Assembly (NCBI GenBank): GCA_016699575.1
Contig: CP064979.1
Span: forward strand, 2,576,824 to 2,640,823
Origin: Flavobacteriales bacterium
GTDB taxonomy: Bacteria; Bacteroidota; Bacteroidia; Flavobacteriales_F; PHOS-HE28
Direction of reading: 5' to 3'
Length of the DNA: 64,000 nucleotides
The stretch's first letter is position 1; each line of letters starts with the position of its first letter. A program made the position numbers and the translations under genes. Shown here piece by piece: positions 1 to 51,052 of this stretch. The notes under the pieces were generated by a model, which was given only the letters and a program-made list of their open reading frames with translations, was not told where the DNA came from and did not search any database.

Positions 1-141
1 CGCGCGCTGGTGAAGCACAACGCCGAGCTGAAGCCCGCCCTGAAGAAGGAAGGCCTGATGACCCGTGACCCACGCACCGTGGAGCGCAAGAAATTCGGCA
101 AGAAGAAGGCTCGCAAGAGCTACCAGTTCAGCAAGCGTTAA
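1..141 (+). CDS. rpsI: 30S ribosomal protein S9, 3' end (partial, runs off window start)
   Basis: Frame-1 translation ends ...[12 protein letters not shown], the conserved uS9 C-terminus. rpsB follows, as in the usual rplM-rpsI-rpsB-tsf arrangement. Confidence 0.8.
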
Positions 142-250
142 GGTCCCACGCTTGTTCAGGATCCAATTCTGGCGGACTCAGCTGCTCCGGTGGCTGGCTA
201 CCCTCAGGATGCCTGTGATAACGGGAACAAGGAAAGTGAACTAAAGAGAC

Positions 251-1030: not shown

Positions 1031-1129
1031 GAAAAGGTTGATGGTTGTTGGTGGACGCGCGCCCATGTCGGACGCTGGACCAACGACCAAGGACCGAGAA
1101 CCAACAACTACCAAGAAGTGAGCACGACC

Positions 1130-1960
1130 ATGGCCATTACCGCCGCCGACGTGAACAAGCTCCGCCAGATGACCGGCGCGGGCATGATGGATTGCAAAAA
1201 GGCCCTCACCGAGGCCAATGGCGACTTCGATGCTGCCATCGACCTGCTGCGCAAGCAGGGCCAGAAGGTGGCCGCCAAGCGCGCCGACCGTGAGGCCACC
1301 GAAGGCTTGGTGATCGCCAAGACCTCCGCCGATGGCAAGCGCGGCGTGATGATCTGCCTGAACTGCGAGACCGACTTCGTGGCCAAGAACGCCGACTTCA
1401 CTGCAATGGCCGAGCGCATCGCCGATATCGCTTTGGAGAAGGGCTGCAAGAACGTGGACGAACTGAAGGCGCAGGCCTACGACAGCAACGGCCTTACCAT
1501 CGCCGAAAAGGTGATCGAGCAGACCGGTGTGATCGGCGAGAAGATCGACGTGAGCGTGTGCGAGATCGTGGAGGCCGCATTCGTTTACGCCTACAACCAC
1601 CCGGGCAACAAAGTGGCCAGCATGGTCGGGTTGAACAAGTCAGGTTTCGAGGGTCCCGCCAAGGATGTGGCCATGCAGATCGCTGCCATGGCGCCCGTGG
1701 CCCTGAACAAGGACAGCGTGCCCGCCGACATCATCGCCAAGGAACTGGAGATCGGCAAGGAGCTCGCCATCCAGGAGGGTAAACCCGCCGACATGGCCGA
1801 GAAGATCGCCCAGGGCCGCCTGAACAAGTTCTTCAAGGAAAGCACCCTGCTCGCACAAGAGTTCATCAAGGACAACAAGCTGAGCGTGGAGCAGTACCTG
1901 AAGACCCAGGACAAGGAACTCACCGCCACCGGCTTCAAGCGTCATTCGCTGATGCAGTGA
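1130..1960 (+). CDS. tsf: Elongation factor Ts
   Basis: MAITAADVNKLRQMTGAGMMDCKKAL... is the EF-Ts N-terminal UBA-like motif. The ORF-track start at 1118 is GTG. The first ATG is at 1130. Confidence 0.95.
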   Translation: MAITAADVNKLRQMTGAGMMDCKKALTEANGDFDAAIDLLRKQGQKVAAKRADREATEGLVIAKTSADGKRGVMICLNCETDFVAKNADFTAMAERIADIALEKGCKNVDELKAQAYDSNGLTIAEKVIEQTGVIGEKIDVSVCEIVEAAFVYAYNHPGNKVASMVGLNKSGFEGPAKDVAMQIAAMAPVALNKDSVPADIIAKELEIGKELAIQEGKPADMAEKIAQGRLNKFFKESTLLAQEFIKDNKLSVEQYLKTQDKELTATGFKRHSLMQ

Positions 1961-1981
1961 GTCCAACTCGCTATGAACGAA

Positions 1982-2015
1982 ACGCCTCGGAAAGTCTCCG
2001 GGGCGTTTTGCGTTC
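1982..2015 (+). terminator. Rho-independent terminator after tsf
   Basis: Stem acgcc(t)cgg / ccg(g)ggcgt with loop aaagtct, followed by ttttgcgttctt. Confidence 0.5.
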
Positions 2016-2067
2016 TTGGGATTGAACGTCGGCTGCGAATAGCTTCGGTTGACCAAATGCCCAAGCC

Positions 2068-4587
2068 ATGAACCTCCGAGCTTGCCTGTTTCTCTCTGCG
2101 TTCACTTTGATCGGAACCGTCCGCTCGAACATCCCGCCGGATTTTTACGGTCAGAAGTCGAGCCGAAGCATAGGCTATTTTGCCAATGAAGGCCAAGTGC
2201 TGCAGACCAATGGCAATAGTGCCAGTGCTGTAGCGGCATACTCGTTCGGAGCTTTCCCGCAGACCTATTTCCTGCACGAGTCAACCGTCTACTTCAACGC
2301 AAGGGAGAACGACGGAGACTTCAGTACCCCCGACCCGTCTTTCTCTTTGCGGTTCCGTCCGATCGGCGAGAATGCTGCACTTGTTTCGCCAGACCTTATT
2401 GGCCAGCGGTCCAACTATCAGAACTTCTTCCTCCCGCAAACGGCTCCCAACGGTGTGGTTGGTGTGCATGACCACGAACGTCTTCACTACAAAGATGTCT
2501 ACCCCGGGATCAGCATGCAGTTCTATGGCACGAGCGCTGGGCAGAACCTCGCTTTCTACGCGGAACCGTACAGCGACCCTTCGGAGATACAATTGCTGTT
2601 CGAGGGCCAAGACAGCTTGCATGTGGACTGGCTCGGGAATCTCAAGGTGCTCATCGCGGGGAAGTGGATCCTTTTGCGTGAGGCCGTTGCGTACCAGGTC
2701 GATGCCAACGAGAACGTCATCCCGCTAAATTGGAACGCACAGTACGAGGAGATCAACGGGCAGGACATCATTGGATTCATCTTTGATACATATGACCCGA
2801 GCCTAGCTCTGGTGCTCCAGATCGGTGCGATGCCCCTCGATGAGCCGGACCCAACCGAATACTTGTGCTGGGGCTCATACTACGGTGGTACTGACATGGA
2901 GGAACTCTACGCGAGCGACACCGATTCAGATGGGAATTTCTACCTCACAGGGTATTCGAGCAGCGACTTCCTCACCTTCCAAAGCAACGTTGGGGTGGAT
3001 CTGGTTGGCAATGATCAGGCGGTCGTTGTGACCAAGTTCCTGGCCAACTACGAGTTAGACTGGACCTTGTTCTACGGCGGATCGGATGATCAAGCGGGTA
3101 GGGACATTGGGGTGCGGGAACTTGGTGGCAACACCGAGATTTTTGTAACAGGATACACGAGGGCGAACGATTTGTACACCTGACCCTTGGCCGGCGCATA
3201 CAATGACTTGACGGCGAGCAGCCTCTGGGAGAAAGGCTTCATACTACAGCTCGATGTGACCGGAGGAATAGACTGGAGTACCTACTTCGGCGACGATAGA
3301 ACTCGCTTGGAGGGGTTGGATTTCGATGCGACGGGTCGGCTCTATTTGGTAGGCGATTGGGAGTACAGCTATCCCTCACAATCGCTTGCCGGTGCGTCCT
3401 CTTGGGCAGCCGGTGGTGAACACGATCTTCTGTTGGCGCGCTTCAGTGCAGCAGGAGCTCTTCAATGGTGTACTTCGTACGGGGGCTCAGACTCCGAGTT
3501 TGGGGGCGATATCGTTTGCACGCCACAGGGCTTTTGGGTCAGTGGGCAAACGCTGAGCACCACTGTTCCGCTCATCGCTGGGAGCGGGTATAACCAATCT
3601 GTTAATGCTGGCGGGCGCGACCTACTGCTGCTCGCGTTCAATAGTTCAGCGGCCTGCCAGAAAGCAACGTTCGTTGGCGGGAGCGATCATGACACACCTG
3701 GGGTCAACAGCCTCGCAGCAACGAGCAACGGGCATGTCTACTTCGTTGGGAATACATTGAGCAGCGATTTTCCATTGCAACAGAGCACTGGATTCTACGA
3801 CGACACGAACGGGGACAGGGCTGCATTCGTGCTTCAGTTCAGCGGCGTCACTAGGGCAATGATGTGGGGTACTTATGTGTACGGCAGTGGAAACAACGCC
3901 TTCGAGACGGCCGTGGTGGACAACCAAGAGAGATTGATAGCCGTTGGCTTCTCCAAGGATCCGAACTTCCCGTTGTGGCAGGCGCCGAACACGTTCTTCC
4001 AAGGTTCCATTATCGACCCTGTAGGTTTTGTCAGCTACTGGGGATACGATGGTGCCATCATGTGCTTCAACCCTGCGCACGTTGTGCAGTACGCGAGCTA
4101 TTTCGGGGGAGAACAAGGCATTTACGGCGACGTGGTGCACACTGCCTCAGTGCATGCCAATCGTTTGTTGATCGCCGGCATGACAGACAAGGATGGGATT
4201 AACGTTGCTGGGTACTTCCCGCTTTTTGATCCCGGTTTCCCGGCGTACTACGACGAGACCTATGATTACAACGGCGGTAGCAACTATTGGGATGGTTGGG
4301 TTGGAGCGATATGCACAGATTTCTTCAGCGCACTGAGCGTGGATGAAAGCACTTTCGGCATGCCTACCGCGCAGTGGTTGGATGGCACGATCACACTGTG
4401 TGGCCTGTCACCTGGGAGGACGCACTGCCGGTTGGTAGATTCTCGTGGAAGACTAGTTCGAGAGAGTAGTGTTGTGGTGCGGCCTGATGGGCGGGCCGAC
4501 TGGAATTGTGGCTCTGTAGCCGCTGGAACCTACGTGCTTCGCACGGATCAGAACTCGTCGGCGGTAAAGGTGGCCGTTCAGAACTGA
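2068..4587 (+). pseudogene. SBBP beta-propeller-repeat T9SS cargo protein, split by an in-frame TGA at 3181-3183 (ORFs 2068..3183 and 3187..4587 share one frame)
   Basis: Signal peptide MNLRACLFLSAFTLIGTVRS. Repeated SBBP-type units (Y/F-GG-sDxD-xG-xIavD-GN-Y-tGxT-S-DFP). The single stop falls inside one repeat unit. The C-terminal ~80 aa (..GTYVLRTDQNSSAVKVAVQN) resembles a Por/T9SS sorting domain. The upstream half lacks a C-terminal sorting domain and the downstream half lacks a signal peptide. Confidence 0.6.
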
Positions 4588-4595
4588 CCTGCTAC

Positions 4596-5948
4596 ATGAA
4601 ATCGCTTGCTGTACTTGTTGGGTGCTTGCCGTGTTTTGCACTGGCTCAGGACAATTGGATTGGGGCGGGTATGCCATACCTCACGTATGGCGTTCGAGAA
4701 CTCTACGTTGAACAGGAAAAGGATCGCCTCTTAGCGATGGGAGTTACTTCGGTGGGGCCTTTGACCTTTCCTGTTGTCATTGGAGAATACAACGGGTCCT
4801 CATGGGACGCATTCGGCGAGTTCGGTGGGTGGGTCTATTCTGCGTGTAGCTACGGTGATACGCTCGTAGTTGGCGGTGCGTTCAATGATGTGGGCGGAGA
4901 ACCCTTTGAGCATATTGCCGCCTTTTATGACAATGCGTGGCACCCATTTGGCGATCTTGACCAGTCTGTGCGCCGACTCCGGATTCTGAACGGAATCCTC
5001 TATGCGGTAGGTGCATTCGAGTACGCCGATGGGCACTTGTGCAACGGGGTGGCCAAACGTGTGGGTGGTGAATGGGTGAACTTGGGGAACTTGCAACAGG
5101 ATGTGCCTGGTGCCCCCATCTTGGTGGAGGTTGCTGAGTTTGCTGGAGATTTGTACGTCGGTGGTTCGCTCTCCTTGGCCGATGGAACCAATGGAATCGC
5201 CAAGTTCGATGGCACCATGTGGAGCGGGCCGGGAGGAGGAATTCTCGGTGGTGCAACCGCTGTGCTTGCCATGGAGGTTTACGGTGGTTCCCTATATGCT
5301 GGTGGTGAGATCGACATCAACTCCGGCAACGTGGGTCATGGGATAATGCGTTGGGATGGTAGCCAGTGGCATGCGGTAGGTGGTAGTGTGCAAGACATCT
5401 ATTGTGGGAGCAGCTATCCGGCGCGGGTATATGAACTACTGGAGCATGATGGACTGCTGCTGGTGGGCGGCGGCTTCGGCTGCGCGGGCGGCATACCGGC
5501 CAGCCGCTTTGCAGTTTGGGACGGCTATCAGTGGTGTGCCAATGCGAGTGTCATGACAGGCTACGTGGAGAGCATGGCTTTCTACCACGATACGCTCTTC
5601 ATCGCCTGCGGTCATGTGGTGGAGGGCGATAGCGTGAACCGTGTGGCCAAATGGGTAGGGGGAGCTTACGGGGATAGTTGCCAGGTCGTGGCCGTGAACG
5701 ATCCCGGGCCATGGCGGGACCGGCTGCGTGTCAGGGTCAGTGGTGCCGGGGTCCTGACCATTTCGGGGCTTCCCGACGGTCGCAGCGATTACTCACTATG
5801 CGATGCGATTGGTCGTGTGCTTGACACTGGCTCTTTGGCTGCCTTTGGTCCAAGTGCTGTGGAAGTTCGGCTACCAGGCCTTGCTTCCGGCGCATACGTT
5901 TTCGTTGTTGAGGGCCTTGCTTACCGATTCATTGTGGCTGAGCCATAG
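4596..5948 (+). CDS. Secreted repeat protein with T9SS C-terminal sorting domain
   Basis: ATG at 4596. [18 protein letters not shown] is a signal peptide. There are repeated G-G-x-F and (A/V)xWDGxxW motifs. The C-terminus ...[27 protein letters not shown] is typical of a Por_Secre_tail. Confidence 0.7.
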
Positions 5949-5986
5949 CGGTTGGCTTGCCGGGATCGCTTCTTTTGCGGCCCGCT

Positions 5987-6715
5987 ATGAGCAACACCTC
6001 CGCCCCCCGTACCTACAAGCGCATCCTCCTGAAGCTCTCGGGCGAAAGCCTGATGGGCACCAAGGACTACGGCATCGACAGCGATCGCCTGAACATGTAC
6101 GCTCAGGAGATCATCGGGGTGGCACGCGGTGGCATCCAAGTGGCCGTGGTGATCGGTGGCGGCAACATCTACCGCGGCATGCAGGCCAACGGCAGCGGTA
6201 TCGACCGTGTGCAGGGCGACCACATGGGCATGCTGGCCACCATGATCAACAGCCTGGCCTTGCAAAGTGCTCTGGAGGCACAGGGCTACAACACCCGGCT
6301 GCTCAGTGCCATCAAGATGGAGCAGATCGCGGAGCCCTTCATCCGCCGTAGGGCCGTGCGCCACTTGGAGAAGGGCCGCATTGTCATCTTCGGTGCGGGC
6401 ACAGGCAATCCCTACTTCACCACGGACACGGCAGCCAGCCTGCGAGCCATCGAGATCGAAGCCGATGTGATCCTGAAGGGCACCCGCGTTGACGGCATCT
6501 ATACCGCCGATCCCGAGAAGGACAAGACCGCCACCCGTTACGAGCGCATCAGCTTCACGGAGGTCTATGACAAGGGTCTCAACGTGATGGACATGACGGC
6601 CTTCACGCTCTGCAAGGAGAACAACCTGCCCATCATCGTCTTCGACATGAACAAGCCCGGCAACCTGGGCCGCTTGGTGAAGGGCGAGCAGGTAGGCACG
6701 CTGGTCGAGTTCTGA
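5987..6715 (+). CDS. pyrH: UMP kinase
   Basis: [14 protein letters not shown]...GGGNIYRG... are the amino-acid kinase family motifs. The ATG at 5987 is preferred over the upstream TTG. Confidence 0.95.
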
Positions 6716-6787
6716 ACAGCGCTATTGAACGGTATTTCTCATCCCGAGCCCGGTCGAGGGATATTTTCGCCGACCTATTCCAGCACC

Positions 6788-7348
6788 ATGACCGATACAC
6801 GCGCCATCATCAGCCAGGCCGACGACAACATGCGCAAGGCCGTTGCGCACCTGGAACAGGAACTCACGAAGATCAGGGCCGGTGCCGCCACCCCCAGCAT
6901 GCTCGATGGCGTGCGGGTGGATTACTACGGCAGCATGATGCCGCTGAGCCAGGTGGCCACCGTGAACACCGGCGATGCACGCACGCTGTTCGTGAAGCCC
7001 TGGGAAAAGAAGATGATCGACGCGATCGAGAAGGCCATCATCGCGGCCAATCTTGGCTTCAATCCCAGCAATAACGGGGAGAGCGTCATCATCAATGTGC
7101 CCATGCTCACCGAGGAGCGGCGCAAGACCCTGGTGAAAGGCGCCCATGCCGAAGGGGAGCATGCCCGGGTCAGTATCCGCGGGTTCAGGCAGAAGGCCAT
7201 GGAAGCCGTGAAGGCCGCTAAGAAGGACGGGCTCCCCGAAGACACTGCCAAGGATGCCGAGGAGCAGATCGAGAAGATCACCGGCATCAACAACAAGAAG
7301 GTCGAAGAGCACATCGCGGCGAAGGAGAAGGACATCATGAAGGTGTGA
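6788..7348 (+). CDS. frr: Ribosome recycling factor
   Basis: MTDTRAIISQADDNMRKAVAHLEQELTKIRAGAATPSMLD is canonical RRF. The gene directly follows pyrH. Confidence 0.95.
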   Translation: MTDTRAIISQADDNMRKAVAHLEQELTKIRAGAATPSMLDGVRVDYYGSMMPLSQVATVNTGDARTLFVKPWEKKMIDAIEKAIIAANLGFNPSNNGESVIINVPMLTEERRKTLVKGAHAEGEHARVSIRGFRQKAMEAVKAAKKDGLPEDTAKDAEEQIEKITGINNKKVEEHIAAKEKDIMKV

Positions 7349-7410
7349 GGACGGGCGTACTTAAATGCCCCAGTGCCCCAGTGCTGCTGGATGAAACCCG
7401 ACTCTCACGG

Positions 7411-7920
7411 ATGCGCTTTTTGATCAGCCGACAAATGGTGATAGGTGCTTTGGCTTTGTTCACGGCATCGGCAGTTGATGCTCAGCAACTCGTGCCCGAC
7501 GGCTCGTCCGTTCGACTTCCGCTCGCTAAGGGTTGGAAACTCGAAACCACCGACCATGTTGATGGTCCATGGCAAGTGCTAACCGTTGAAAAGAAGGGGT
7601 TGAGCACGAGCGGAAACGTAACAGTGCGCTGGACACCAGGTCAATTGAAGCTGGACAGTGTTGCAATGGAAATCGTGTCGGCTTATCGAAGGCGATCGGA
7701 GGTCTTGGACTTGAATACGGGTTCCGCGGCGTTCCAAGAGCGTTCAGCCTTCCGGGCTGATTTCAAGGTTTTCCCGATAATGCCGTTTCTCGTCGATGTG
7801 CGGTCGTTCCACGCTTGCGGGAAGACCTTCGTCTTCATCGTCTATGTTGCTCAGGAGGATGCTGGTAAGAGGCAACGCGACTTCCAGGAGATTGAGGCGG
7901 GCTTTGTCTGTGATGAGTAG
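7411..7920 (+). CDS. Hypothetical secreted protein
   Basis: ATG at 7411 gives the signal peptide MRFLISRQMVIGALALFTASAVDAQQ. No recognisable domain. Confidence 0.5.
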   Translation: MRFLISRQMVIGALALFTASAVDAQQLVPDGSSVRLPLAKGWKLETTDHVDGPWQVLTVEKKGLSTSGNVTVRWTPGQLKLDSVAMEIVSAYRRRSEVLDLNTGSAAFQERSAFRADFKVFPIMPFLVDVRSFHACGKTFVFIVYVAQEDAGKRQRDFQEIEAGFVCDE

Positions 7921-7967
7921 AGCAACTGCGAACAGTCTTGCCTTACACATTTGATCGAGCCGAGGAC

Positions 7968-8993
7968 TCACGCCCACACCGGGCTTCCCTCACTGCAGTT
8001 CCTGCACATCTCCAAATTGCTGCGGCTTTGTAGCAACGCAGCTCGGAAGTCACGGTAGGAGGCGCCGTTCCAGATCTCTTTGAAGGGGCCTTGCCCAACA
8101 CTGCCGAGCACATGGTGCGCGTCCTTGTCGAAGCAGCACGGCACCACACGACCGTCCCAGGTGATCACACAGCTGTGCCACATCTTCCAGCAGTGGTCGT
8201 GCATTGCGTTCTTCAATTGCCATGAGCCATCGGCCGCGCGGCGGTAACGTGCGTACTTGTCTTGGGTGGGTATGAGGGGATGGTCCTCGCGAGGGTCGTA
8301 CACCTGAGCGGTTTTCAGCCACAGGTCGTCGACGCCGATGCGCTTGGCCAACGCGCGGGCTGCGGGGATCTGGTGTTCATTCGGTTTCACCACCAGGAAC
8401 TGGAACACCAGGTGCGGCGTGCGGCTCTTCAGCAGGCGTTTCCATTTCACGATCCGCTCGGCTCCCTCGATCACCTTGTTCAACGTGCCTTCCTTGCGGT
8501 AGGCCTCGTACGTCGCCTGATCCGTGCCGTCCAGTGAAATGATGAGCCGCGACAGCCCGCTCCGCACCGTACGCTCCGCGACTTCCTCCGTAATGAAATG
8601 CGCGTTGGTGCTGGTCGCCGTGTACACGCCACGCTCGCTGGCATGCGCCACCATGTCGAGGAACGAAGGGTTGATGTACGGCTCGCCTTGGAAGTAGAAC
8701 GTCAGGCTCAGGAGGTCGTCGCCCAGTTCATCGATCACCCGGTGGAAGAGCGGCTGCTTCAGGTTGCCGGTCGGCCGGGTGAATGAGCGCAGACCGCTCG
8801 GGCATTCAGGGCATCGAAGGTTGCATGCCGTGGTGGGTTCGATGCTGATGTTGATGGGCAGGCCTTTGATGACGGGCTCCTTCGTGCGCTTGGCCCGTTG
8901 ATAGCTGCTCCAGATGCGCCACGCGTTGGTTGCACGGCGCGCGGAGAGCTTCCGCGACCATTCGCGCGCATCGTGCAGGGGGGCAAGGAGCAT
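7968..8993 (-). CDS. Radical SAM / SPASM-domain protein (342 aa)
   Basis: CNLRCPECPSG is a CX3CX2C 4Fe-4S motif. The Cys-rich C-terminal region (CCFDKD..., CRNCSEG) is SPASM/twitch-like. The ATG at 8993 was verified on the reverse strand. The ORF-track extension to 9605 is non-coding-looking and overlaps the divergent neighbour. Confidence 0.8.
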   Translation of the reverse strand: MLLAPLHDAREWSRKLSARRATNAWRIWSSYQRAKRTKEPVIKGLPINISIEPTTACNLRCPECPSGLRSFTRPTGNLKQPLFHRVIDELGDDLLSLTFYFQGEPYINPSFLDMVAHASERGVYTATSTNAHFITEEVAERTVRSGLSRLIISLDGTDQATYEAYRKEGTLNKVIEGAERIVKWKRLLKSRTPHLVFQFLVVKPNEHQIPAARALAKRIGVDDLWLKTAQVYDPREDHPLIPTQDKYARYRRAADGSWQLKNAMHDHCWKMWHSCVITWDGRVVPCCFDKDAHHVLGSVGQGPFKEIWNGASYRDFRAALLQSRSNLEMCRNCSEGSPVWA

Positions 8994-9065
8994 CTGCGGG
9001 ACAATGTAGCGGGCACCGGGGAGGGCGTCTGTTACTTTCTTCGTCGCCCGACCGTCACACTTCAC

Positions 9066-11486
9066 ATGCTTCCCTTGTTGCGAACGGCGACCGCGCTGTG
9101 CTGTTGCTGCCTTTGGGTGTTCACCGCTGCGCAAGTGATGGTCGCCGGTCGTGTGGTTGACGATCGCACCGGAGAACCGTTGCCTTTTGTGCACGTGCGA
9201 CCGGATGGTGCAGGACAGGGCGTGCTGGCGGATGCGGACGGACGCTTTGCGGTGGAAGTCGCTGCTTTGCCGACCACCTTGATATGCAGCTATGTGGGCT
9301 ACCAACCGCTGCGGTACGAGAGCTGGGACGAGCGACCGGTCGTCCTGCGCTTGCATGCCCTGACCAAAGAGCTGAGCGAGGCGGTTGTGCGTCCGGGCGA
9401 AAACCCCGCGCACCGCATCATCGAGGCCGTGCACGCCAACCGCAAGCGCAATGACGGGCTCAGCGCGGGCAGCTTCCGCTACACCAGTTACGCGCGCACG
9501 GTCTTCACCATCGAAGCGGACAGCGCCCTGATGACCGACAAGGCGCGCATCGCCCAGTTGGACAGCAACGGCCGCGAGATCGTGGAATTCATGAACGAGC
9601 AGCACCTCCTGCTCATCGAGAGCGCGACGCGCCGAACGTTCCGGCCGCCCAACGGTGACCGTGAAGAGGTGCTGGCCTTGCGTGTGAGCGGCTTCGAGGA
9701 TCCCGGATTGCTGGCGCTCGTCGCCTCAACGAAAACCTTCAGCATGTACGAGCCGCTGATCCCCTTGGGCGAGAAGACGTACATGAGCCCCATCGCGCGC
9801 GGATCGGTGAACAGCTATCTCTTCATCCTGGAAGACACGCTCTTCCAAGGAACCGACAGTGTGTTCGTGATCAGCTACCGTCCACGGACAAGCAAGAATT
9901 TCGAGGGACTTTCCGGAACGCTCTGGGTGAACAGCGATGGCTACGCCCTGCAGAACGTGGTGGCCGGTCCGGTGAAGCGGGGTGAAGGCCAGGGCCTGAA
10001 GGTGCAGCAGGTGCACAAGCGCATCGGTGCGACTTGGTTCCCCGTGCAGCTCAACACCACATACTTCTTCGATGGCATAACGCTGAACGGGTTCCAGCCG
10101 CTGGGTATCGGCCGCGTGCAATTACGTGACGTCGAAACGGGCATAGAAGTGTCGCGTTCGGAAGTGGCCGGTCCCGAATTCGTGATGGACCCCTTGGCGT
10201 TGCACCGCGACGAAGCCTATTGGCGGGCGCTTCGTCCCGATACGTTGGGAAAGAAAGAGCTGAAGACATACCAGGTCATCGACAGTATCAGCAAGGCGGA
10301 GAACTTGGGCAGGACCTTGAAGGGACTGGAGGCGTTGCTCAGTGGCAGCATCCCCTGGGGGCCGGTGGACTTCGAGCTTCGGCGCATCATTTCCGCCAAT
10401 GCGCTGGAGGACGTGCGGCTGGGCCTCGGCCTGAGCACCAACGACCGCGTGTCCCGTGTGGCACGCCTTGGTGGTTGGTTCGGTTACGGCTTCGGGGACA
10501 AGACATGGAAGTACGGCGCTGATGTGCGTGTGAAACCCAAGCCGGCGAGGTCGTTGGAAGTGCACGCGTACTACGCGAACGACCTTGTGGAAAGCGGTGG
10601 CGTTGCCTTCAAGGGCCCGCGTACACTACTGCTCAGCGATGACGTGCGGCTGCTCTACATGGACCGGATGGATCGCGTGGAGCGGATCGGAGGAACGGTG
10701 CACCTGCGCTTGGCCAGCGGACTCCGCATGTGGTTGGGCACGGCTAGTGAGTTGCGGATCAATGACCTCGGATATCGTTTTGTGCAACCGCTTGGAGAAG
10801 GAGTGGAGCGCTTGGTCAACGATTTCCGCAGTGGCGAGGTGAGCGTTGATGTCCGCTACGCACACGGCGAGCGCTTGGCCCAGTTGCCCGGCCGCCAGGT
10901 GGACCTCGGTACGAAGTGGCCCGTGCTCCAAGTGTCGTTCGCGCAAGCCGTGGATGGGCTTTGGGAAGGCGAGCAACAGTGGTGGCGTGCGGCTGTGCAA
11001 ACCGGCAAGTCGTTCAGGACGCGTCGCATGGGCACTCCATCAGTACGGGTGATGGCCGGTATGGCAGATGCCACGGCCGCGTACCCGTTTCTCTTCAACC
11101 TGAGGGGTTCGCGCGGCGAGGGATGGTGGCTGAACACACCTTATGCGTTCGAAACCATGGTGCCGGGCGAGTTCCTGTCGGACCGTTTCATCGTGGTCCA
11201 TTACCGGCATTCGTTCGGCAAGCTCCTGCTGAAGACCAAGAAGTGGCAGCCGTTGCCCACCCTGGTGACCAGCGCGGGTTGGGGTGGGCTGGAACATGCG
11301 GCGAACCATCGCGGCTATGACTTCCGCAGCATGGTGGAAGGGTTCTTCGAAAGCGGGGCGGAGGTCCTTTTCCGCAACAACCTCTCGGCCCTGGGCTTCG
11401 GTGTGTACTGGCGCTACGGCCCCTACGCGTTACCGGACGCAATGGACAACCTCTACCTGAAGCTGGCACTGGGGATCGGGATCTGA
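9066..11486 (+). CDS. Large outer-membrane-type protein with N-terminal carboxypeptidase-regulatory-like domain (DUF5686-like)
   Basis: ATG at 9066. Signal peptide MLPLLRTATALCCCCLWVFTAAQV, then GRVVDDRTGEPLPFVHVRPDG..DADGRF, a CarboxypepD_reg motif. ~806 aa. Confidence 0.7.
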   Translation: MLPLLRTATALCCCCLWVFTAAQVMVAGRVVDDRTGEPLPFVHVRPDGAGQGVLADADGRFAVEVAALPTTLICSYVGYQPLRYESWDERPVVLRLHALTKELSEAVVRPGENPAHRIIEAVHANRKRNDGLSAGSFRYTSYARTVFTIEADSALMTDKARIAQLDSNGREIVEFMNEQHLLLIESATRRTFRPPNGDREEVLALRVSGFEDPGLLALVASTKTFSMYEPLIPLGEKTYMSPIARGSVNSYLFILEDTLFQGTDSVFVISYRPRTSKNFEGLSGTLWVNSDGYALQNVVAGPVKRGEGQGLKVQQVHKRIGATWFPVQLNTTYFFDGITLNGFQPLGIGRVQLRDVETGIEVSRSEVAGPEFVMDPLALHRDEAYWRALRPDTLGKKELKTYQVIDSISKAENLGRTLKGLEALLSGSIPWGPVDFELRRIISANALEDVRLGLGLSTNDRVSRVARLGGWFGYGFGDKTWKYGADVRVKPKPARSLEVHAYYANDLVESGGVAFKGPRTLLLSDDVRLLYMDRMDRVERIGGTVHLRLASGLRMWLGTASELRINDLGYRFVQPLGEGVERLVNDFRSGEVSVDVRYAHGERLAQLPGRQVDLGTKWPVLQVSFAQAVDGLWEGEQQWWRAAVQTGKSFRTRRMGTPSVRVMAGMADATAAYPFLFNLRGSRGEGWWLNTPYAFETMVPGEFLSDRFIVVHYRHSFGKLLLKTKKWQPLPTLVTSAGWGGLEHAANHRGYDFRSMVEGFFESGAEVLFRNNLSALGFGVYWRYGPYALPDAMDNLYLKLALGIGI

Positions 11487-45039: not shown

Positions 45040-45250
45040 GAGCGTGTCTTGGGGCGGAGTGAGGGCTTCTCGCACGGCGCTGACCTTGTCCTTTTAGGGG
45101 CGGAGATCTTCTTGGAAGGCTTGAAGAGCTTGTTGTCAAGGGCGGAGGGCTTCTTGGAAAGGGCGATGAGGTTGTTGGGAGGGTGGGAGTGGATGTTTTG
45201 TCAGGGAGAGAGGCTTTTGGAGCGGTGTGCGAGCGTTTGCCAACACCAAG
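45040..45250. repeat. Degenerate ~43-bp tandem repeat array (4-5 units) in a 660-bp gene-free gap
   Basis: Units share GGGCGGAG..GGCTTCTTGGAAAGGGCGA-like cores. The array is followed by the hairpin ccacctttt-gctcgcc-aaaaggtgg at 45259-45283. Confidence 0.4.
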
Positions 45251-45585
45251 TCGTTTCCACCTTTTGCTCGCCAAAAGGTGGAGCCAAAAGGCGCCCACGA
45301 TCAAAGCACTGGCCCAGCCCACGCAAGGCCCACGCACGGCCTTCGGGCTGGGCCGTGCCGCGCTGATCGTGGACATCCCCGCACGACTGCCTGCCGAGGC
45401 AAACACGCGAGGGCAAGCGGGGTAATACAGGGTACCGGTGACGCTGCTTTGTTAAATGGTACCGTTGCTGAGATCGGGTGGCGGAAATGCACGGTGGGCG
45501 TGGGTTTGGACGTTGATGAGTGCGAGCCCGGGCATTGTGCCCGGGAACCGAAGGGCGGCCGGACCGCCCAGTAAAACCAAGTACC

Positions 45586-46272
45586 ATGAAGAAGACCGCT
45601 GAGAACCGCATGAGCATGTTCTATGCGGTGGAGGGGGTGTGCGACAAGCACACGCTCGTGTGGACCCCTTTGGTGCCCTACGCCACGGCCGTGGGCGAAC
45701 TGAAGGACAAGATCCTGTTGTTGGAGGACGCTGTGCAGCTGCAGGAAAGCGAGCTGAAGGGCTACGCCGAGGACAAGCGGCACAAGAAGGAGGCGATGGT
45801 GGACAAGACCCTTGAGGTTGCGCAGGCCACCTACGCCTTGGCGGTGGACAAAGGCGACGATGTGCTGAAGGCCCAAATGGACCACAGCCGCAGCGACCTG
45901 CTGCTGGGCCGCGATACGGTGGTGGGCCAACGCTGCCAGGACGTGCACGACCTGGCCAATGCGGTGGTGGTGCAACTGGCGCCGTACGGCATACTGCCCG
46001 CCGACATGACCGCGCTACAAACGGCCATTAACGCCTACGTGACGGTGGTGGACGCACCGCGTGTGGCGGTGACCGTGCGCAAAGGCGCCACGACGGCCAT
46101 TGACAAGTTGGTGACGGAAGCCACGGCGATCCTGACCGAGCGGATGGACAAGCTGATGGTGGAGTTCAAGAGCAGCGCGCCGGACTTTTGGCAGCAGTAC
46201 TTCGATGCCCGGATCATTGTGGATCTGGGCGGGAAGGAAGAGGACGAAGAACCGCCGCCGCCTACGCCTTAA
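45586..46272 (+). CDS. Hypothetical protein (228 aa, helical, acidic Pro-rich C-terminus)
   Basis: ATG at 45586 (MKKTAENRMSMFYAVEG..). GC3-rich coding pattern. No family assigned. Confidence 0.5.
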   Translation: MKKTAENRMSMFYAVEGVCDKHTLVWTPLVPYATAVGELKDKILLLEDAVQLQESELKGYAEDKRHKKEAMVDKTLEVAQATYALAVDKGDDVLKAQMDHSRSDLLLGRDTVVGQRCQDVHDLANAVVVQLAPYGILPADMTALQTAINAYVTVVDAPRVAVTVRKGATTAIDKLVTEATAILTERMDKLMVEFKSSAPDFWQQYFDARIIVDLGGKEEDEEPPPPTP

Positions 46273-46654
46273 GGCGGTGATGTGGAAGCCCGCGCAGAAG
46301 ACAGCTGCGCAGGGCACACGCCAACAAGTGGCCCTGTTGGCGGCGGCAAGGCCCGGTGAAAGCCGGGCCTTGTTGTTCGTGTGAGGATTTCGGATACGTT
46401 TGGATTGACCATGCACAGGACAGGAGGCGGGCCAGAGGCCATAGAGCGTCCCGGTAGGGACGGGGACTTACTCGGGCAAGACTCGGGCGCGTTCAATGGA
46501 CAACGTTCGAGCGTTTGCGGGGCCTGGAGTGTGGGCGTTTCGCTTTATAGCCGTTGTTGGCTGGCTTTACGAAACCCCCTTCCTCACCCAAGCCCGGATA
46601 TTGACGCAATGCGTTAACCCTCAGTTACCTGCAAGGCTAAAAAACGACACGACA

Positions 46655-48385
46655 ATGAAGAAACTAACTGTAATAATATTGACTTTCTCTTTTGCATTGA
46701 CTGCATTAGGACAGACATTTGAACCTCAAATTTTAATTTTGACACCAAATGAGTTCAAGTACGAAAAAACTTTTGATAAGGAGATAAAATCAGCTAACAA
46801 AGAACTCTCAAAAAGACCAAAGAATTCCGAACAAACCGACTTTGTAAAATCAGAAGAATTTAAAAAGCAGCCTGACAACATTCAAAGAATAACGCTTTCT
46901 GAAATCAGCTTTTCAGAGAAACTTGACTTTTCAAAACAAGCAAGTTTTATTGCACAGCAGTATTTAGCTTATCGTTTTTATGAACGTTTTCCAAATTTGC
47001 TCATTCTACTTTCTAATAACAAATCAAATGGCAGTCCGACAGAATTAAAGAAAATCGCAGACAGTGATAAAATTCAGTATGTTCTAAATTTTCCACGAAT
47101 AGAACTTTATAAAAGAGACGGGATTAGTTTTGCGAAAATAACCGTTCAGCTATATGACAATTCTTCTCAAACCTTTCTAATAAATACCGAATATGAAGGA
47201 GATTGGACAAACCCAGGTTTTGAATTTGCTTGTACTGACAAATCTATTGACTGCACAATTAGCAACGCCTTATCAAAAGCACTTGGAGATGTAATTTATC
47301 AAGTAGCTTCAAACAGTCCGACAATAAAAAGAGACCGAGAACTTGCACAACTTCGTTTTGACGAGCTTGTTTCAAAGTATTATTCAAATACTAACAACAA
47401 GGAGTTTTTAAAACCAATAATTACTCAGCCTGACAGCAATATTGTGTTAAAAGACCAATATCAAATTTTGATAGACCCTTCACAAACTAAGTTTGTTGCC
47501 TTTTTCATAGAACAAGTTTCTGCGCAGGACTTCAAAGCTATGAAAGACAACAAGAGAGATAAAAATGTAAATATCATATCAAGCAAAGACATTAAAGATG
47601 AAGGTTTCTTAGATGATATTCCACAAACTTATGCTTACATTGTTAAGGGTGTAAAACATAATGAAAAGTGGTATTACGAAAAATCAAATGTTACTTACTT
47701 TGAAGCAAAAACTCTTGAAGAAGGCAAACAGAAATATTTTTACAACCTTAATAAATGGAACTTTTTCAAAGAGAACTCAACTGAATTTAATCCTGACTTT
47801 TGGGAAACGAGTCTATTCAAAAAAGTCAAAGACTTAAAACAAGAACCTGATTGGGACAAATACGGTGAAACTATATGGAAAACTCAAGAAGTAAACGACC
47901 GTCCTTATATTGGTCATTATGAAATTGTCGCCAATCAACTAAAAAAAGATGCTTCAGCGAAATCAGAAAACTTTGACCGAAAAATAATTGAAGAAATAAC
48001 ACGACCACTTTCTGAAAAAATCAAGATAGAAGGAAATTACGAGATTGTTTCTCTAAAACAAATGTCAAAGGACTATTTGTTAATCTACCCTACGGACAAA
48101 TCAATTATACTGACCCCTATTAAAGTCAAAGAAAAAGATGGAGAAATGTTTATAAGATACTTTGTTCTTATTCCAAACAAAGACAGTTATGACATTTATG
48201 AATGGAATTACTTAGACCCGAAAAAATTTAAGAACTCGCAATTGGGACCGAGTTTTATGGACCAAATCAATACTTTGACAACTTGGAATTTTTCATACAA
48301 AAATTTAGACGACAAAGATTTTTGGGAAAAGTATGTATTATTAAAAGTAGGTGACAACTATAAATACCTAACCAAAAGACAATGA
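46655..48385 (+). CDS. Hypothetical secreted protein, AT-rich (cassette 1, 576 aa)
   Basis: ATG at 46655. Signal peptide MKKLTVIILTFSFALTALGQ. The protein is Lys/Asn/Glu-rich. Its codon usage is completely different from the flanking genes. Confidence 0.65.
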   Translation: MKKLTVIILTFSFALTALGQTFEPQILILTPNEFKYEKTFDKEIKSANKELSKRPKNSEQTDFVKSEEFKKQPDNIQRITLSEISFSEKLDFSKQASFIAQQYLAYRFYERFPNLLILLSNNKSNGSPTELKKIADSDKIQYVLNFPRIELYKRDGISFAKITVQLYDNSSQTFLINTEYEGDWTNPGFEFACTDKSIDCTISNALSKALGDVIYQVASNSPTIKRDRELAQLRFDELVSKYYSNTNNKEFLKPIITQPDSNIVLKDQYQILIDPSQTKFVAFFIEQVSAQDFKAMKDNKRDKNVNIISSKDIKDEGFLDDIPQTYAYIVKGVKHNEKWYYEKSNVTYFEAKTLEEGKQKYFYNLNKWNFFKENSTEFNPDFWETSLFKKVKDLKQEPDWDKYGETIWKTQEVNDRPYIGHYEIVANQLKKDASAKSENFDRKIIEEITRPLSEKIKIEGNYEIVSLKQMSKDYLLIYPTDKSIILTPIKVKEKDGEMFIRYFVLIPNKDSYDIYEWNYLDPKKFKNSQLGPSFMDQINTLTTWNFSYKNLDDKDFWEKYVLLKVGDNYKYLTKRQ

Positions 48386-48407
48386 CAACAAAGAGAAGCC
48401 CAGCAGG

Positions 48408-48537
48408 TAACAGCACCTACCCAAAAGTGGCGGTTCAGTGGTTAAATCAAGCTTTGTGCTTTTATCAAAGTTTGTGCTTGGTTGACAGTGAAGTGCTTCG
48501 AAATCGCCACCTTCGGGTAGCTGCAAAACGTTATAGG
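48408..48537 (+). repeat. attC-like imperfect palindromic element 1 (~130 bp)
   Basis: Left end TAACAGCACCTACCCAAAAGTGGCGG. Right end CGCCACCTTCGGGTAGCTGCAAAACGTTATAG (inverse complement with bulges). There is an internal direct repeat TTTGTGCTT x2. It ends with a GTTA.. core-like motif. It begins 23 bp after the ORF stop. Confidence 0.5.
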
Positions 48538-48694
48538 GCATTTTAAAAGACTACAAAAGCACGACAAAAATGATAGTTCGGAGGGAAAAATATTCATACA
48601 ATCCAATAATGCAAAACCTTATTTTTTCTAAATTTGGAAAGACATTGAAAAATAATTTTTAGGTCAATTCGATTAACACAATAAAAAAGAAAAT

Positions 48695-49090
48695 ATGAAC
48701 ACAACGTTGAGACATTTAATATTTCTTCTTCTAGTAACTGCATTTTTAAGCTCTTGCGAAAAAGAGACTATTATTGATTACTATATAGATAACCAATCCT
48801 CAACCTCGATTTCTATAGATGGAACTGATATTATTCATTCGGTGGATATAGACTATACTATATCTGAAAATGAAAAAATGAAAATCACTAATTGGTCAAA
48901 ACGAGGTATTCAATCCGACTTATTTGAACCTACGACAATGTTTGGAAATGATTTGCTAATTATTAATTCCAATAGTGATACACTTCAGAAAGATTATAAA
49001 CTCTTGTCGAATTGGCAATCTAGTGTGGACGACGAAAGAAAAACTGTTTCTCACGACTATATTTTAGTAATAACAGATGCAGACTTCTAA
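48695..49090 (+). CDS. Hypothetical lipoprotein, AT-rich (cassette 2, 131 aa)
   Basis: MNTTLRHLIFLLLVTAFLSSCEKE has a lipobox Cys. A TAAATTTG (Bacteroidota -7-like) motif lies at 48629-48636, ~60 bp upstream. Confidence 0.6.
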   Translation: MNTTLRHLIFLLLVTAFLSSCEKETIIDYYIDNQSSTSISIDGTDIIHSVDIDYTISENEKMKITNWSKRGIQSDLFEPTTMFGNDLLIINSNSDTLQKDYKLLSNWQSSVDDERKTVSHDYILVITDADF

Positions 49091-49101
49091 AAAACGCCCT
49101 A

Positions 49102-49229
49102 TAACAGCACCTACCCAAAAGGCGGGGTTTCGTGTTCTAAAGACAGTTTTGTGGTTAATCAAACATTAGTTTTTCAAATCAGGTTTTGTGGTAAAAGTCC
49201 CGCCCTTCGGGTAGCTGCAAACCGTTAGC
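49102..49229 (+). repeat. attC-like imperfect palindromic element 2 (~128 bp)
   Basis: Left end TAACAGCACCTACCCAAAAGGCGGGG. Right end CCGCCCTTCGGGTAGCTGCAAACCGTTAGCGG. There is an internal direct repeat TTTTGTGGT x2. It begins 12 bp after the ORF stop. Its right end (GTTAGCG) abuts the duplicated fic 3' segment. Confidence 0.5.
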
Positions 49230-49241
49230 GGTCGTTTGTTT

Positions 49242-49490
49242 TCAGTGACTGGTCGGATGCCTGTACACCGCCGCCCTGCCTTCCCCGATCCTCACCAGTC
49301 GCGCCCTTGCCACCGCCTCGGCCAGATCCCTGCTCGCACTGGCCGTGCTGAGCCTTGGGAACGCGTTCATGTGATCCTTGCGGCGGAATGGACGGTCCGG
49401 TGCTTGGGCCATGAAGAGCGCGATGCGGTCGGGTGCGCGGCGCACGGGGTCGGGCATGGACAGGAGTTCGGCCAGGGCTTCATCGAGGCG
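49242..49490 (-). pseudogene. Truncated duplicate of the fic 3' end (C-terminal ~83 codons), copy A of the ~265-bp direct repeat
   Basis: The translation ..RLDEALAELLSMPDPVRRAPDRIALFMAQAPDRPFRRKDHMNAFPRLSTASASRDLAEAVARARLVRIGEGRAAVYRHPTSH is ~90% identical to the C-terminus of the full Fic gene at 50078-51052. The nucleotide identity extends over 49222-49490 versus 50059-50330. Confidence 0.65.
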
Positions 49491-49513
49491 AAGTCTACTG
49501 GTCTGCGCGAAAT

Positions 49514-49807
49514 TCAGAAGGGCCTGTCTGCCGGGTTGCGCCGAACGTGCCAAAGTGTGAGGACGTGCACGGCGTTCGACGTGGCGCTGTAGAAGATCAA
49601 ATGGTCTCCTACGGTCTTCACTCGAACGTCAGGGTCGCTTGTCGGTCGCCCGATCTTCGGTTGGGAGGCGATGAGCCGGAGGGCGGAACGGAACATGCCG
49701 TCGAGTTTTTCGCTGTAAAGCGTTGAGCCATTGCGCTCGACCCAATAAGCCAGGATCTCCAATCGCTGCCGGTGGGCTTGCGCGGACCAGACTATTTGCC
49801 GAACCAT
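49514..49807 (-). CDS. Type II toxin, ParE/RelE family
   Basis: 97 aa, ..DHLIFYSATSNAVHVLTLWHVRRNP is a ParE-like C-terminus. It overlaps the upstream antitoxin ORF by 16 nt. Confidence 0.8.
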   Translation of the reverse strand: MVRQIVWSAQAHRQRLEILAYWVERNGSTLYSEKLDGMFRSALRLIASQPKIGRPTSDPDVRVKTVGDHLIFYSATSNAVHVLTLWHVRRNPADRPF

Positions 49808-50028
49808 TCGTCCACGGCCTTGTTGGCCTGCGCGGCCGAGAGCGTACGGCCCTCTTTGATGTCTTTCTTGCCGCGCTTGATGGAAGCTTGCTGCTCCTTG
49901 CTCAACTTATACGGTTCCAGGTCTGCGGCGTCGGTGCCGAGCAAGCGGTAGGCTTCGCGGAGCAAGGCACTATCGCGTGAGCGCTGAATGCGGTTGATGA
50001 GGCGCTTTTTCAGTTCAACATCCGACAT
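49792..50028 (-). CDS. Putative antitoxin (addiction-module component, 78 aa)
   Basis: Small charged protein directly upstream of, and overlapping, the ParE-like toxin. Confidence 0.65.
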   Translation of the reverse strand: MSDVELKKRLINRIQRSRDSALLREAYRLLGTDAADLEPYKLSKEQQASIKRGKKDIKEGRTLSAAQANKAVDEWFGK

Positions 50029-50077
50029 GGTGCAATGGATCGATCGCGTAAATCTAGCGTGCTAACGGTCGTTTGTT

Positions 50078-51052
50078 TCAGTGACTGGCCGGATGCCTGT
50101 ACACCGCAGCCCGGCCTTCCCCGATCCTCACCAGTCGCGCCGTTGCAACCGCCTCCGCCAGATCTCTGCTCGCACTGGCCGTGCTGAGCCGCGGGAACGC
50201 GTTCATGTAATCCTTGCGGCGGAAGGGCCGGTCAGAGGCTTGGGCCAGGAAGAGCGCGATGCGGTCAGGCGCGCGGCGCACGGGGTCGGGCATGGACAGG
50301 AGTTCGGCCAATGCTTCATCGATGCGCTCCATGAGGTAGGTGACGAAGAGGCCGCAGTCGCCCTGGCGGTCGGCGTACTCGAGCGCGGCGTAGTAGGCGG
50401 GCTGGGTGCGCTGGATGAAGCCCTCCACCGGCAGGAAGCCGAAGACGGGCCAGTGGCGCATGAGCACGCGGCGCTGCCAGAGTCGGGCCATGCGCCCGTT
50501 GCCGGCAGTGAAGGGCCGCAAGTACACCAGGCCGAAGTGCAGCAAACAACTGGTGATGATGGGCGGCGCATCGTCGTTCTCCACGAAGTGCAGGAGCTCC
50601 TCCACCAGCACGGACATGTTCTCGGCCGGGGCCACGCGCAGCGGAGGCGGTTCGCCGTAGAGGACGTCCATGGGCCCGGTGCGGTAGGTGCCGGCATCGA
50701 GGGCCAGGCCGTGCATGAGCACCCCGTGCGCGTGGCGCAGGTCGTGGGCCATGAAGGGGTCGAGCCCCGGCAGCAGCTCATGGGCGCGCTGGGTGTTCAC
50801 GGCTTCCAGGGCTTCGGGCCCGGCGGTGTGGGTGGGGTGCGCGACGAGTTCGGCCACGGGCAGGGGCTCCAGCTGGTTCCCTTCCAAAGCCAGCGTGGCG
50901 TGCACGGTGCGGATGCGGTATGCCAGGTCGAGGTCGGCCGCCGGGCGCCCCAAGTGGCGGGCGTGCACTTCGCCCAAGCGATGGTAAATGGACGTGAGCA
51001 GGGTGAGCATCCTGCTGTGCATGGTGTAGAAGGCGTAGGAGGAGGGGAGCAT
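50078..51052 (-). CDS. Fic/DOC-family protein with a non-canonical motif (RPFTAGNGRMAR)
   Basis: The Fic core ..LRPFTAGNGRMARLW.. is present. The ATG at 51052 is preferred over the upstream TTG. The C-terminal helical domain matches the duplicated fragment at 49242-49490. Confidence 0.85.
   Translation of the reverse strand: MLPSSYAFYTMHSRMLTLLTSIYHRLGEVHARHLGRPAADLDLAYRIRTVHATLALEGNQLEPLPVAELVAHPTHTAGPEALEAVNTQRAHELLPGLDPFMAHDLRHAHGVLMHGLALDAGTYRTGPMDVLYGEPPPLRVAPAENMSVLVEELLHFVENDDAPPIITSCLLHFGLVYLRPFTAGNGRMARLWQRRVLMRHWPVFGFLPVEGFIQRTQPAYYAALEYADRQGDCGLFVTYLMERIDEALAELLSMPDPVRRAPDRIALFLAQASDRPFRRKDYMNAFPRLSTASASRDLAEAVATARLVRIGEGRAAVYRHPASH

Follow-up and report, generated by a model that had tools for sequence, protein, structure and literature searches.

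Diverged copies of a fic gene end on either side of a toxin–antitoxin module in a Flavobacteriales genome

In a 64,000-nt stretch of a Flavobacteriales genome (GenBank assembly GCA_016699575.1, contig CP064979.1, positions 2,576,824 to 2,640,823; this whole stretch is hereafter called the window), we found that the 3′ end of a Fic-family gene, fic, is present twice as a 265-bp direct repeat, and that the two copies enclose a small toxin–antitoxin (TA) module. The substitutions that separate the copies are those of two diverged alleles, no recombinase gene lies between them, and comparable repeats of unrelated anchor genes, with junctions that vary from locus to locus, recur around homologous TA modules elsewhere. 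We consider it probable that the 265-bp repeat is the scar of a homology-anchored acquisition, that is, an “insertion with long target duplication”.

The fic-end repeat and its cargo

The repeat and the DNA that it encloses comprise the following features (L and P numbers, here and below, are our own handles for the sequences compared).

50078–51052, minus strand: intact Fic-family gene, 324 aa (QQR85120.1; Pfam Fic, 3.3e-11), the anchor gene, adjoining rpsL-rpsG-fusA
50063–50326, minus strand: repeat copy B, from fic nt 727 to the stop codon plus ~15 nt downstream, running into the TA leader (from alignments)
49491–50062, minus strand: unique cargo between the copies, 572 bp, made up of leader, antitoxin, toxin and trailer
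50029–50062: TA leader, containing TAGATTTACGCGATC, which is common to the module of L017
49792–50028, minus strand: putative antitoxin, 78 aa, overlapping the toxin start by 16 nt
49514–49807, minus strand: toxin of the ParE/RelE superfamily, 97 aa (Pfam ParE_toxin, 1e-09, 39.2 bits against a cut-off of 23)
49491–49513: TA trailer, 23 nt, ending in GTAGACTT
49226–49490, minus strand: repeat copy A, an orphan fic 3′ end of 81 codons, stop codon and ~16 nt, running into attC2

Copy A matches copy B at 242 of 265 positions (91.3%) in alignments made with MAFFT, with blastn and globally, and a repeat search recovered the core of the repeat (49240–49490 and 50076–50326) at 92%. The copies start 836–837 nt apart, their alignment contains one 1-nt indel only, within the T run after the stop codon, and their local alignment score of 412 compares with a maximum of 28 for shuffled sequence. 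Differences are spread over the whole length of the repeat, with identical runs of up to 40 nt between them, and an identical core is absent at its ends. Within the 64-kb window this is the sole direct repeat of at least 50 nt.

An earlier note on this DNA had described repeats of ~90% identity running from 49222 to 49490 and from 50059 to 50330, a location that proved nearly exact; the alignment that it called for fixes the strict ends at 49226 and 49490 for copy A and at 50063 and 50326 for copy B. The note was also right to take copy B for the genuine 3′ end of fic, although this comprises 81 codons plus the stop codon and not ~83 codons, and to take copy A for an orphan fragment that diverges upstream. 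Homology stops at 49490, where the open reading frame (ORF) at 49242–49553 runs on into unrelated sequence overlapping the toxin gene. At its other end copy A is joined directly to GTTAGCG (49224–49230), the R′ core of the second of two attC-like hairpins (attC2), as the note had likewise seen. In the source genome, copy A is annotated as a 71-aa hypothetical protein (QQR85117.1, identical to P0122), which we would re-annotate as a displaced Fic C-terminus.

Only a ParE/RelE-like toxin gene and its putative antitoxin gene lie between the copies, in agreement with the note. Judged by sequence, this cargo fits a type II TA module of the ParE/RelE superfamily, with a family model scoring above its cut-off and a small overlapping upstream partner. 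The 78-aa partner has no Pfam or NCBIfam match and is conserved upstream of every homologous toxin. Such toxins are few: at E ≤ 1e-10, only 12 homologues were found in 5.8e9 proteins, the best non-self one being 69% identical. Nucleotide homology of the cargo to the TA modules in L015 and L017 ends at about the cargo limits. The window Fic protein is identical to P0121 and carries its Fic domain within the conserved body (aa 105–197), ahead of a variable tail of 22 aa. There is no recombinase in the bracket, and a scan of ~30 window ORFs, which was not exhaustive, found no integrase family. A related 7-mer stands near both ends of the TA unit (TAGATTT at 50046–50052 and TAGACTT at 49494–49500), and the ends of the L017 module carry TACATTT and TAGATTT; the shared 7-nt pattern, TAsAyTT, is not present in L015 or L021 and could be due to chance.

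Diverged copies at fic and at other anchor genes

Over 81 codons, copies A and B differ by 15 synonymous and 6 non-synonymous substitutions (synonymous divergence dS 0.29; ratio of non-synonymous to synonymous divergence, omega, 0.12) with no indel or stop, while ~26–29 non-synonymous changes would be expected if an in-situ duplication had been followed by neutral evolution of the orphan (Poisson P ~1e-6; conditional binomial P 0.003–0.004). Because the differences are mostly synonymous, the copies are better described as alleles than as a fresh duplication: on this evidence, A and B are two diverged alleles, united by recombination between lineages and not by local duplication, and copy A appears to have belonged to a working fic gene in another lineage until recently. 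Elsewhere, omega between orphan and intact copies is 0.14 for thyA, 0.31 for a cytochrome-c-like gene and 0.23 for a gene encoding 1211 aa. In the conserved 180 nt of the repeat, the distances among A, B and strain L008 are about equal (identities of 90.6, 89.4 and 90.0%). Sites at which other strains side with A are mixed, along the repeat, with those at which they side with B, and no single crossover point, of the kind that a hybrid copy would contain, is visible within it.

Brackets of the same type recur around homologous TA modules. The contigs of the 12 toxin homologues and 13 loci from a metagenome scan were surveyed, and gave the following repeats (positions of the copies and their identity).

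L017/18: thyA 5′ end, 526–687 and 1271–1432, 85%
L021–23: dnaE 5′ end plus upstream sequence, 237–400 and 1003–1173, 81%
L037: last 96 nt of the 1211-aa gene, 3630–3725 and 4707–4802, 88%
L034: 3′ end of the cytochrome-c-like gene, 2781–3008 and 4481–4713, 82%
L030: three repeat copies, 531–658, 2117–2263 and 3040–3214, 84–88%
L019/20: three repeat copies, 1423–1543, 2414–2484 and 3034–3154, 80–86%

Brackets are present too in L035 and L015, and four TA loci with adequate flanks have none. The repeats (80–91% identical, 71–265 nt, each the end of a neighbouring gene) enclose the TA module or an adjacent module: those of L034 enclose a YhcG/DUF1016 nuclease gene, with the TA module just outside the orphan, and those of L030 separate a ParE module, a ParE-like plus YafQ-like module and a PIN module. 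One copy of the anchor gene is always kept intact, whether this concerns the 3′ end of fic, the 5′ ends of thyA and dnaE with their start codons, or the last 96 nt of the 1211-aa gene. The ends of the modules are variable, with leaders of 32–128 nt and trailers of 19–412 nt, and fixed element termini were rejected on the ground of these varying lengths.

Two of these loci have further features of their own. The L030 sequence (1–3302) is an array of four TA modules, in which the three repeat copies, of 128–147 nt, are the 5′ part of a small secreted-protein gene. In L015, a 91% direct repeat (1553–1640 and 3418–3504) surrounds an HTH/M78-peptidase and DUF4411 pair immediately upstream of the homologous ParE module, and HEPN/MNT and DUF2200 genes lie near this bracket.

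At the fic locus itself, seven metagenome-assembled genomes (MAGs) related at the genus or family level (Fic 56–82% identical) have a single fic adjoining rpsL-rpsG-fusA, and lack the TA module, a low-GC array and any synteny with the window past fic; when the downstream regions of L001–L007 were compared with the window by tblastx, only noise came back. The synteny of fic with the ribosomal-protein cluster extends over the 7 genus-level MAGs and ~6 strain-level contigs. Strain-level relatives also have one fic, with a Fic protein ~100% identical over ~300 aa and a fic body at 94–96% nucleotide identity. The last ~22 aa of Fic (window 50078–50147; P0001, P0123–P0133) are hypervariable among strains in which the first ~300 aa are near-identical, identity to the window falls off towards the fic 3′ end, and at 50148 the nucleotide homology with L008 and L009 breaks off. 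What lies downstream of fic differs among the strains.

L008: a NACHT island, then a homologue of the 250-aa gene found on the far side of the window’s variable region
L009–12: DUF2752 directly
L013: CCP_MauG directly
L014: a prophage inserted inside fic
L043: an island of at least 10 kb

Homology between the window and L008 resumes at 46456, L008 5978–6995 matching window 46456–45437 at 90%. The fic 3′ end is the edge of a hypervariable locus, at which fic is the only sequence common to all strains.

The sequence that is repeated in the window is single in relatives that lack the TA module, since L001–L014 each have one fic 3′ end and no such module, although none of the fourteen carries the same tail allele plus downstream flank and none is therefore an exact empty site. 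The earlier note had held that two full-length paralogous fic genes in relatives would make the locus a case of tandem gene decay; every relative has a single fic. Its proposal of an insertion geometry at the fic terminus, with one copy keeping fic intact and the other orphaned, is supported by this comparison.

Two further orphan fic ends, independent of this one, occur at the same locus. In L043/44, an island of at least 10 kb is followed by the last 297 nt of fic as an orphan (from nt 676), and this stretch is colinear with the downstream genes of L009 at 93.9%. In P0149 (ENA contig, 1002 nt), the Fic C-terminus, from ~codon 249 on, is joined to a HipA_C fragment within one ORF of 137 aa. 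The start points of the fic orphans are thus different in the three cases: nt 676 (L043), 727 (window) and ~745 (P0149).

A number of these fic loci have further features. The L043 island (1–10405; also in L044) contains four large genes, of 708, 377, 1907 and >339 aa, with almost no family matches, and P0149 is another case of a toxin gene abutting an orphan fic end. The prophage of L014 (1–10636; ENA ERZ15185901 NODE_2), with tape-measure and baseplate genes, splits fic at ~codon 104–116 into a 116-aa N-terminal ORF (P0126) and a 211-aa C-terminal ORF (P0128). In L008 (Fic 97% identical), a 1090-aa NACHT NTPase gene and two small genes lie downstream of fic (1709–5977), a position that suggests a defence-island hot spot.

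Origin of the bracket

In the acquisition that we favour, DNA from a related strain would have paired with the resident chromosome through fic, the one sequence with which it could pair, as the strains differ in all that lies downstream of fic. Its other end would have been joined illegitimately at fic nt 727, and the outcome would be an intact fic, an inserted TA module and one displaced fic end. The B allele would have stayed attached to fic, followed by the 572-bp TA module, and the A allele would have been orphaned 836 bp downstream together with its own integron cassettes; either of the two could have been the resident allele. Equivalently, a TA-less fragment may have tried to replace a resident fic-TA locus. 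Ordinary double-crossover replacement of a TA-bearing locus would kill the cell, and only products that kept the TA module would survive. Direct repeats of 100–270 bp would be expected to recombine, and in doing so they would delete the module; post-segregational killing should stabilise this otherwise unstable arrangement; brackets may be found repeatedly around this TA family because addiction kills deletants. We infer the transfer route, the illegitimate join and the stabilisation by addiction from the form of the locus. What the earlier note had proposed, an insertion at the fic terminus with fic reconstituted by the duplicate, stands as to displacement and reconstitution and falls as to site-specific integration, as no recombinase was found and the junctions vary.

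Several points weigh against such an acquisition. Illegitimate joins are rare in experiments, and recurrence therefore needs either strong survivorship, through TA addiction, or another mechanism. The junction holds no interpretable microhomology. No genome was found with an A-type fic followed by attC2, or with a B-type fic plus TA module and no orphan, and we infer the parental states because an exact empty site was not found. The omega tests rest on 21–26 differences per pair, and the 232 kb of control sequence (window plus fic loci), in which the only non-tandem direct repeat is the TA bracket of the window, are core-genome DNA and not island DNA. Finally, the points at which the fic alleles meet the TA leader (B side) and attC2 (A side) lie within ~10 nt of each other, ~17 nt past the stop codon, and the flanking hexamers are exact reverse complements (GTTAGC at 49224–49229 and GCTAAC at 50061–50066); these near-coincident joins could hint at a preferred site, and could also be chance.

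Ranked second, and possible although clearly less probable, is a RecA-driven cycle in which recombination between the repeats excises a ~836-bp circle, consisting of a fic-end arm and the TA module, which is then re-inserted by a single Campbell-type crossover into the homologous gene end in a different genome; every insertion would form the bracket anew, and arrays would grow from a succession of such events. Integration of a circle bearing a gene-end fragment by a single crossover would give exactly this geometry, an intact gene copy is always kept, and arrays with three repeat copies between successive modules exist (L030, L019). The divergence of the copies lies within the between-strain range, RecA would find identical stretches as long as 40 nt, and restriction-modification units have been suggested to pass through a comparable “virus-like cycle” (PMC2853133). 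However, four TA lineages (62–69% identical) on four anchor genes imply that new arms would often need an illegitimate step, the pattern of single-nucleotide differences has no single crossover point, excision should kill the host cell, and neither circles nor a transfer route find support in the evidence. Somewhat more speculative is the wider idea that high-GC Flavobacteriales possess a recombinase-free cassette system, in which diverged host gene ends would act as att/attC sites, circles would re-enter homologous genes and addiction would prevent loss. The same reading may cover the TA module and other small defence modules, with arrays beside the anchor gene as in L030 and L019, and such a system, if real, would be a counterpart of the integron that depends on RecA. 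It seems to us improbable that the fic 3′ end was duplicated in tandem on the spot, perhaps with the TA module caught at the junction by template switching, and that the orphan afterwards diverged and decayed. Copies A and B are mutually closest, as such a duplication would predict, especially in the terminal ~70 nt (93–95%, against at most 82% to other strains), and the restriction-modification examples in the literature have near-identical repeats that are compatible with true target duplication. Against it stand the omega of 0.12, the 6 non-synonymous changes where ~27 are expected for a neutral orphan, the 81 codons without frameshift or stop, and the same signature in the orphans of thyA, the cytochrome-c-like gene and the 1211-aa gene.

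Two remaining explanations invoke site-specific recombination, and the locus speaks more strongly against both. The idea of an integrative element that is directed to an att site within the fic 3′ end, bringing a replacement 3′ end with it in the manner of islands at tRNA genes, would account for the reconstituted fic 3′ end, for the hypervariable last 22 codons, as if each island had brought its own end, and for the break of homology to L008 and L009 at one and the same point, 50148. We nevertheless regard it as very unlikely: no integrase is present in the bracket or, among the ORFs scanned, near it, the bracketed cargo is merely 572 bp, the repeat ends share no identical core, the inner boundaries of the fic orphans differ (nt 676, 727 and ~745), and no remnant was found at the far boundary of the variable region. 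The model is contradicted above all by the bracketing of the same TA family by unrelated gene ends. For these reasons, together with the variable leaders and trailers and the unrelated anchors (thyA, dnaE, the cytochrome-c-like gene and the 1211-aa gene), we do not retain the earlier suggestion that the junctions mark att-like sites. Least credible of all is that the TA module and copy A form a third integron cassette, beginning with TTAGCG at 49225 and carrying an attC that overlaps the fic 3′ end, with its R″ (GCTAAC) at 50061. TA cassettes are common in chromosomal integrons, and GTTAGC on the A side and GCTAAC on the B side are exact reverse complements, like the R′ and R″ of one cassette. 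Yet the region 50040–50180 folds no better than shuffled sequence (z −0.30 and −0.70 by strand), the trailer has no G|TT junction, the candidate R′ reads GTTGCAA in B and CTTGCCA in A, and the 265 bp of shared sequence are left unaccounted for. A third attC within the fic repeat was rejected because of this folding (z −0.3 and −0.7, against −3.4 and −3.7 for the two attC hairpins of the neighbouring array) and of the unconserved R′.

The nearest precedent for the insertion that we favour is long target duplication (Nobusato et al. 2000, Gene 259:99; PMC2853133). Restriction-modification units, which are also addictive, have been described with direct-repeat flanks of 46–423 bp, no mobility genes and a mechanism given as unknown (Furuta, Abe & Kobayashi 2010, PMC2853133), and a 2014 review ascribes long target duplication to restriction-modification systems only (PMC3874152). 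The definition used by the Kobayashi group is an addictive module of <20 kb with direct repeats of >30 bp and no mobility genes in the insert. With an insert of 572 bp that holds a toxin and an antitoxin gene only, and repeats of 265 bp, the present locus falls within these bounds; it carries a ParE_toxin gene together with that of a small antitoxin, and not a restriction-modification system. Both share a small addictive cargo with no mobility gene, direct repeats of variable length (46–423 bp there, 71–265 bp here), a repeated sequence that is single in related genomes, and repeats that often overlap a gene end. They differ in that the cargo here is a type II TA module of the ParE family, the repeats here are diverged alleles (80–91%, omega 0.12–0.31) where those described before are near-identical, and modules here form arrays in which repeat copies separate them. 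For type II TA modules, the literature searched yielded no account of an insertion with long target duplication.

There is a second resemblance, to the displacement of effector and immunity genes in Rhs, contact-dependent inhibition (CDI) and type VI secretion system (T6SS) loci (Jackson et al. 2009; Kirchberger et al. 2017, PMC5361080). There, too, the anchor gene is conserved in its 5′ part and variable towards its 3′ end, the incoming DNA is homologous on one side only, and the former 3′ end comes to lie downstream as an orphan with a conserved piece still attached, sequential events giving rise to arrays. In contrast to those loci, the anchors here are ordinary genes (fic, thyA, dnaE and the cytochrome-c-like gene) that may be affected at one end or the other (5′ or 3′), and what is carried is a TA operon standing by itself in place of an anchor-fused toxin tip with its immunity gene. 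The variable 3′ tip of fic is not a toxin domain, the Fic domain lying in the conserved body and the cargo being a separate operon. Integrative elements at the 3′ ends of tRNA and protein genes likewise leave a 3′-end direct repeat around the insert and the gene intact; unlike them, the present locus has no integrase among the ORFs scanned and no short identical core, and both target gene and inner boundaries vary. TA-carrying integron cassettes are comparable in that a small TA module stands directly beside an attC-bounded array, and TA modules are thought to stabilise cassette arrays. They are unlike the TA module of the window, which has no attC or G|TT junctions of its own, only the two neighbouring low-GC cassettes being of integron type.

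What is new here is an insertion of the long-target-duplication or displacement type that carries a type II TA module between allelic repeats. It suggests a recombinase-free route by which “addictive” genes may enter genomes. The movement of chromosomal TA modules with no mobility genes has been a long-standing loose end, and the locus offers a testable signature for it, namely diverged repeats of a neighbouring gene’s end. It would link TA modules both to the long target duplications of restriction-modification systems and to the orphan arrays of polymorphic toxins, with addiction or self-protection, and not a shared enzyme, as the common factor. A prediction follows, that TA modules preserve recombination scars that are otherwise erased, and orphan gene ends beside TA modules could therefore be dated records of transfer between strains.

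The neighbouring low-GC array

Copy A borders on a block (46625–49224) of ~31% GC set in host DNA of ~62% GC, which consists of two integron-type cassettes.

46625–48532, plus strand: cassette 1, ~31% GC, encoding a 576-aa secreted protein (46655–48385), with attC1 at ~48404–48538
48533–49224, plus strand: cassette 2, 31% GC, encoding a 131-aa putative lipoprotein (48695–49090)
49098–49230, plus strand: attC2, with R″ CCTATAAC, R′ GTTAGCG (49224–49230) and the G|TT boundary at 49224|49225
45520–46272, plus strand: hypothetical gene, 250 aa, at the opposite edge of the variable region

Both low-GC units have the attC hairpins, the R″ complementary to the cassette start and the G|TT boundary of integron cassettes. 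On the bottom strand, the two sites form long hairpins (z = −3.42 for attC1 and −3.68 for attC2; none of 200 shuffles was as stable), and attC2 is alignable to attC1 at 79%. The left junction of cassette 1, ccctcaG|TTACCTG, is the reverse complement of the attC1 R″ CAGGTAAC, with which the cassette start GTTACCTG pairs, and the start of cassette 2, GTTATAGGGC, is the exact reverse complement of the R″ of its own attC, GCCCTATAAC. The proteins of the two cassettes have no family match. A complete integron is not present, as the left neighbour is the hypothetical 250-aa gene and no integrase was found among the ORFs tested. Because no integrase was found among the ~30 window ORFs scanned, the array is to be called an attC cluster without integrase, and we would annotate the two low-GC cassettes as such within this 62% GC genome.

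The array lies wholly outside the two fic repeats. It is a separate insertion of the integron-integrase type, ~17 nt past the stop codon of the copy-A allele. The earlier note had thought it probable that the whole low-GC array was inserted together with the TA module, an idea that we discard: the array is outside the repeats, has its own G|TT junctions, and is not bordered by a third fic remnant. At the far boundary, no such remnant scored above shuffled sequence (window 46273–46640; L008 5400–6170), and the sequence on the far side of the cassettes is not homologous to the TA leader.

Two minor observations concern the far side of the array. Imperfect tandem repeats of 21/42 nt (GGGCGGAG..CTTCTTGGAA..) occupy window 45098–45202, between the DUF2752 gene and the 250-aa gene, a region that is alignable to L008 at 71% only. 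The sole Rfam match is a sub-threshold one to the Xanthomonas small RNA sX12 (26 bits, against a gathering score of 106), at 46317–46376, directly behind the 250-aa gene; the site is a GC-rich hairpin and is probably a terminator.

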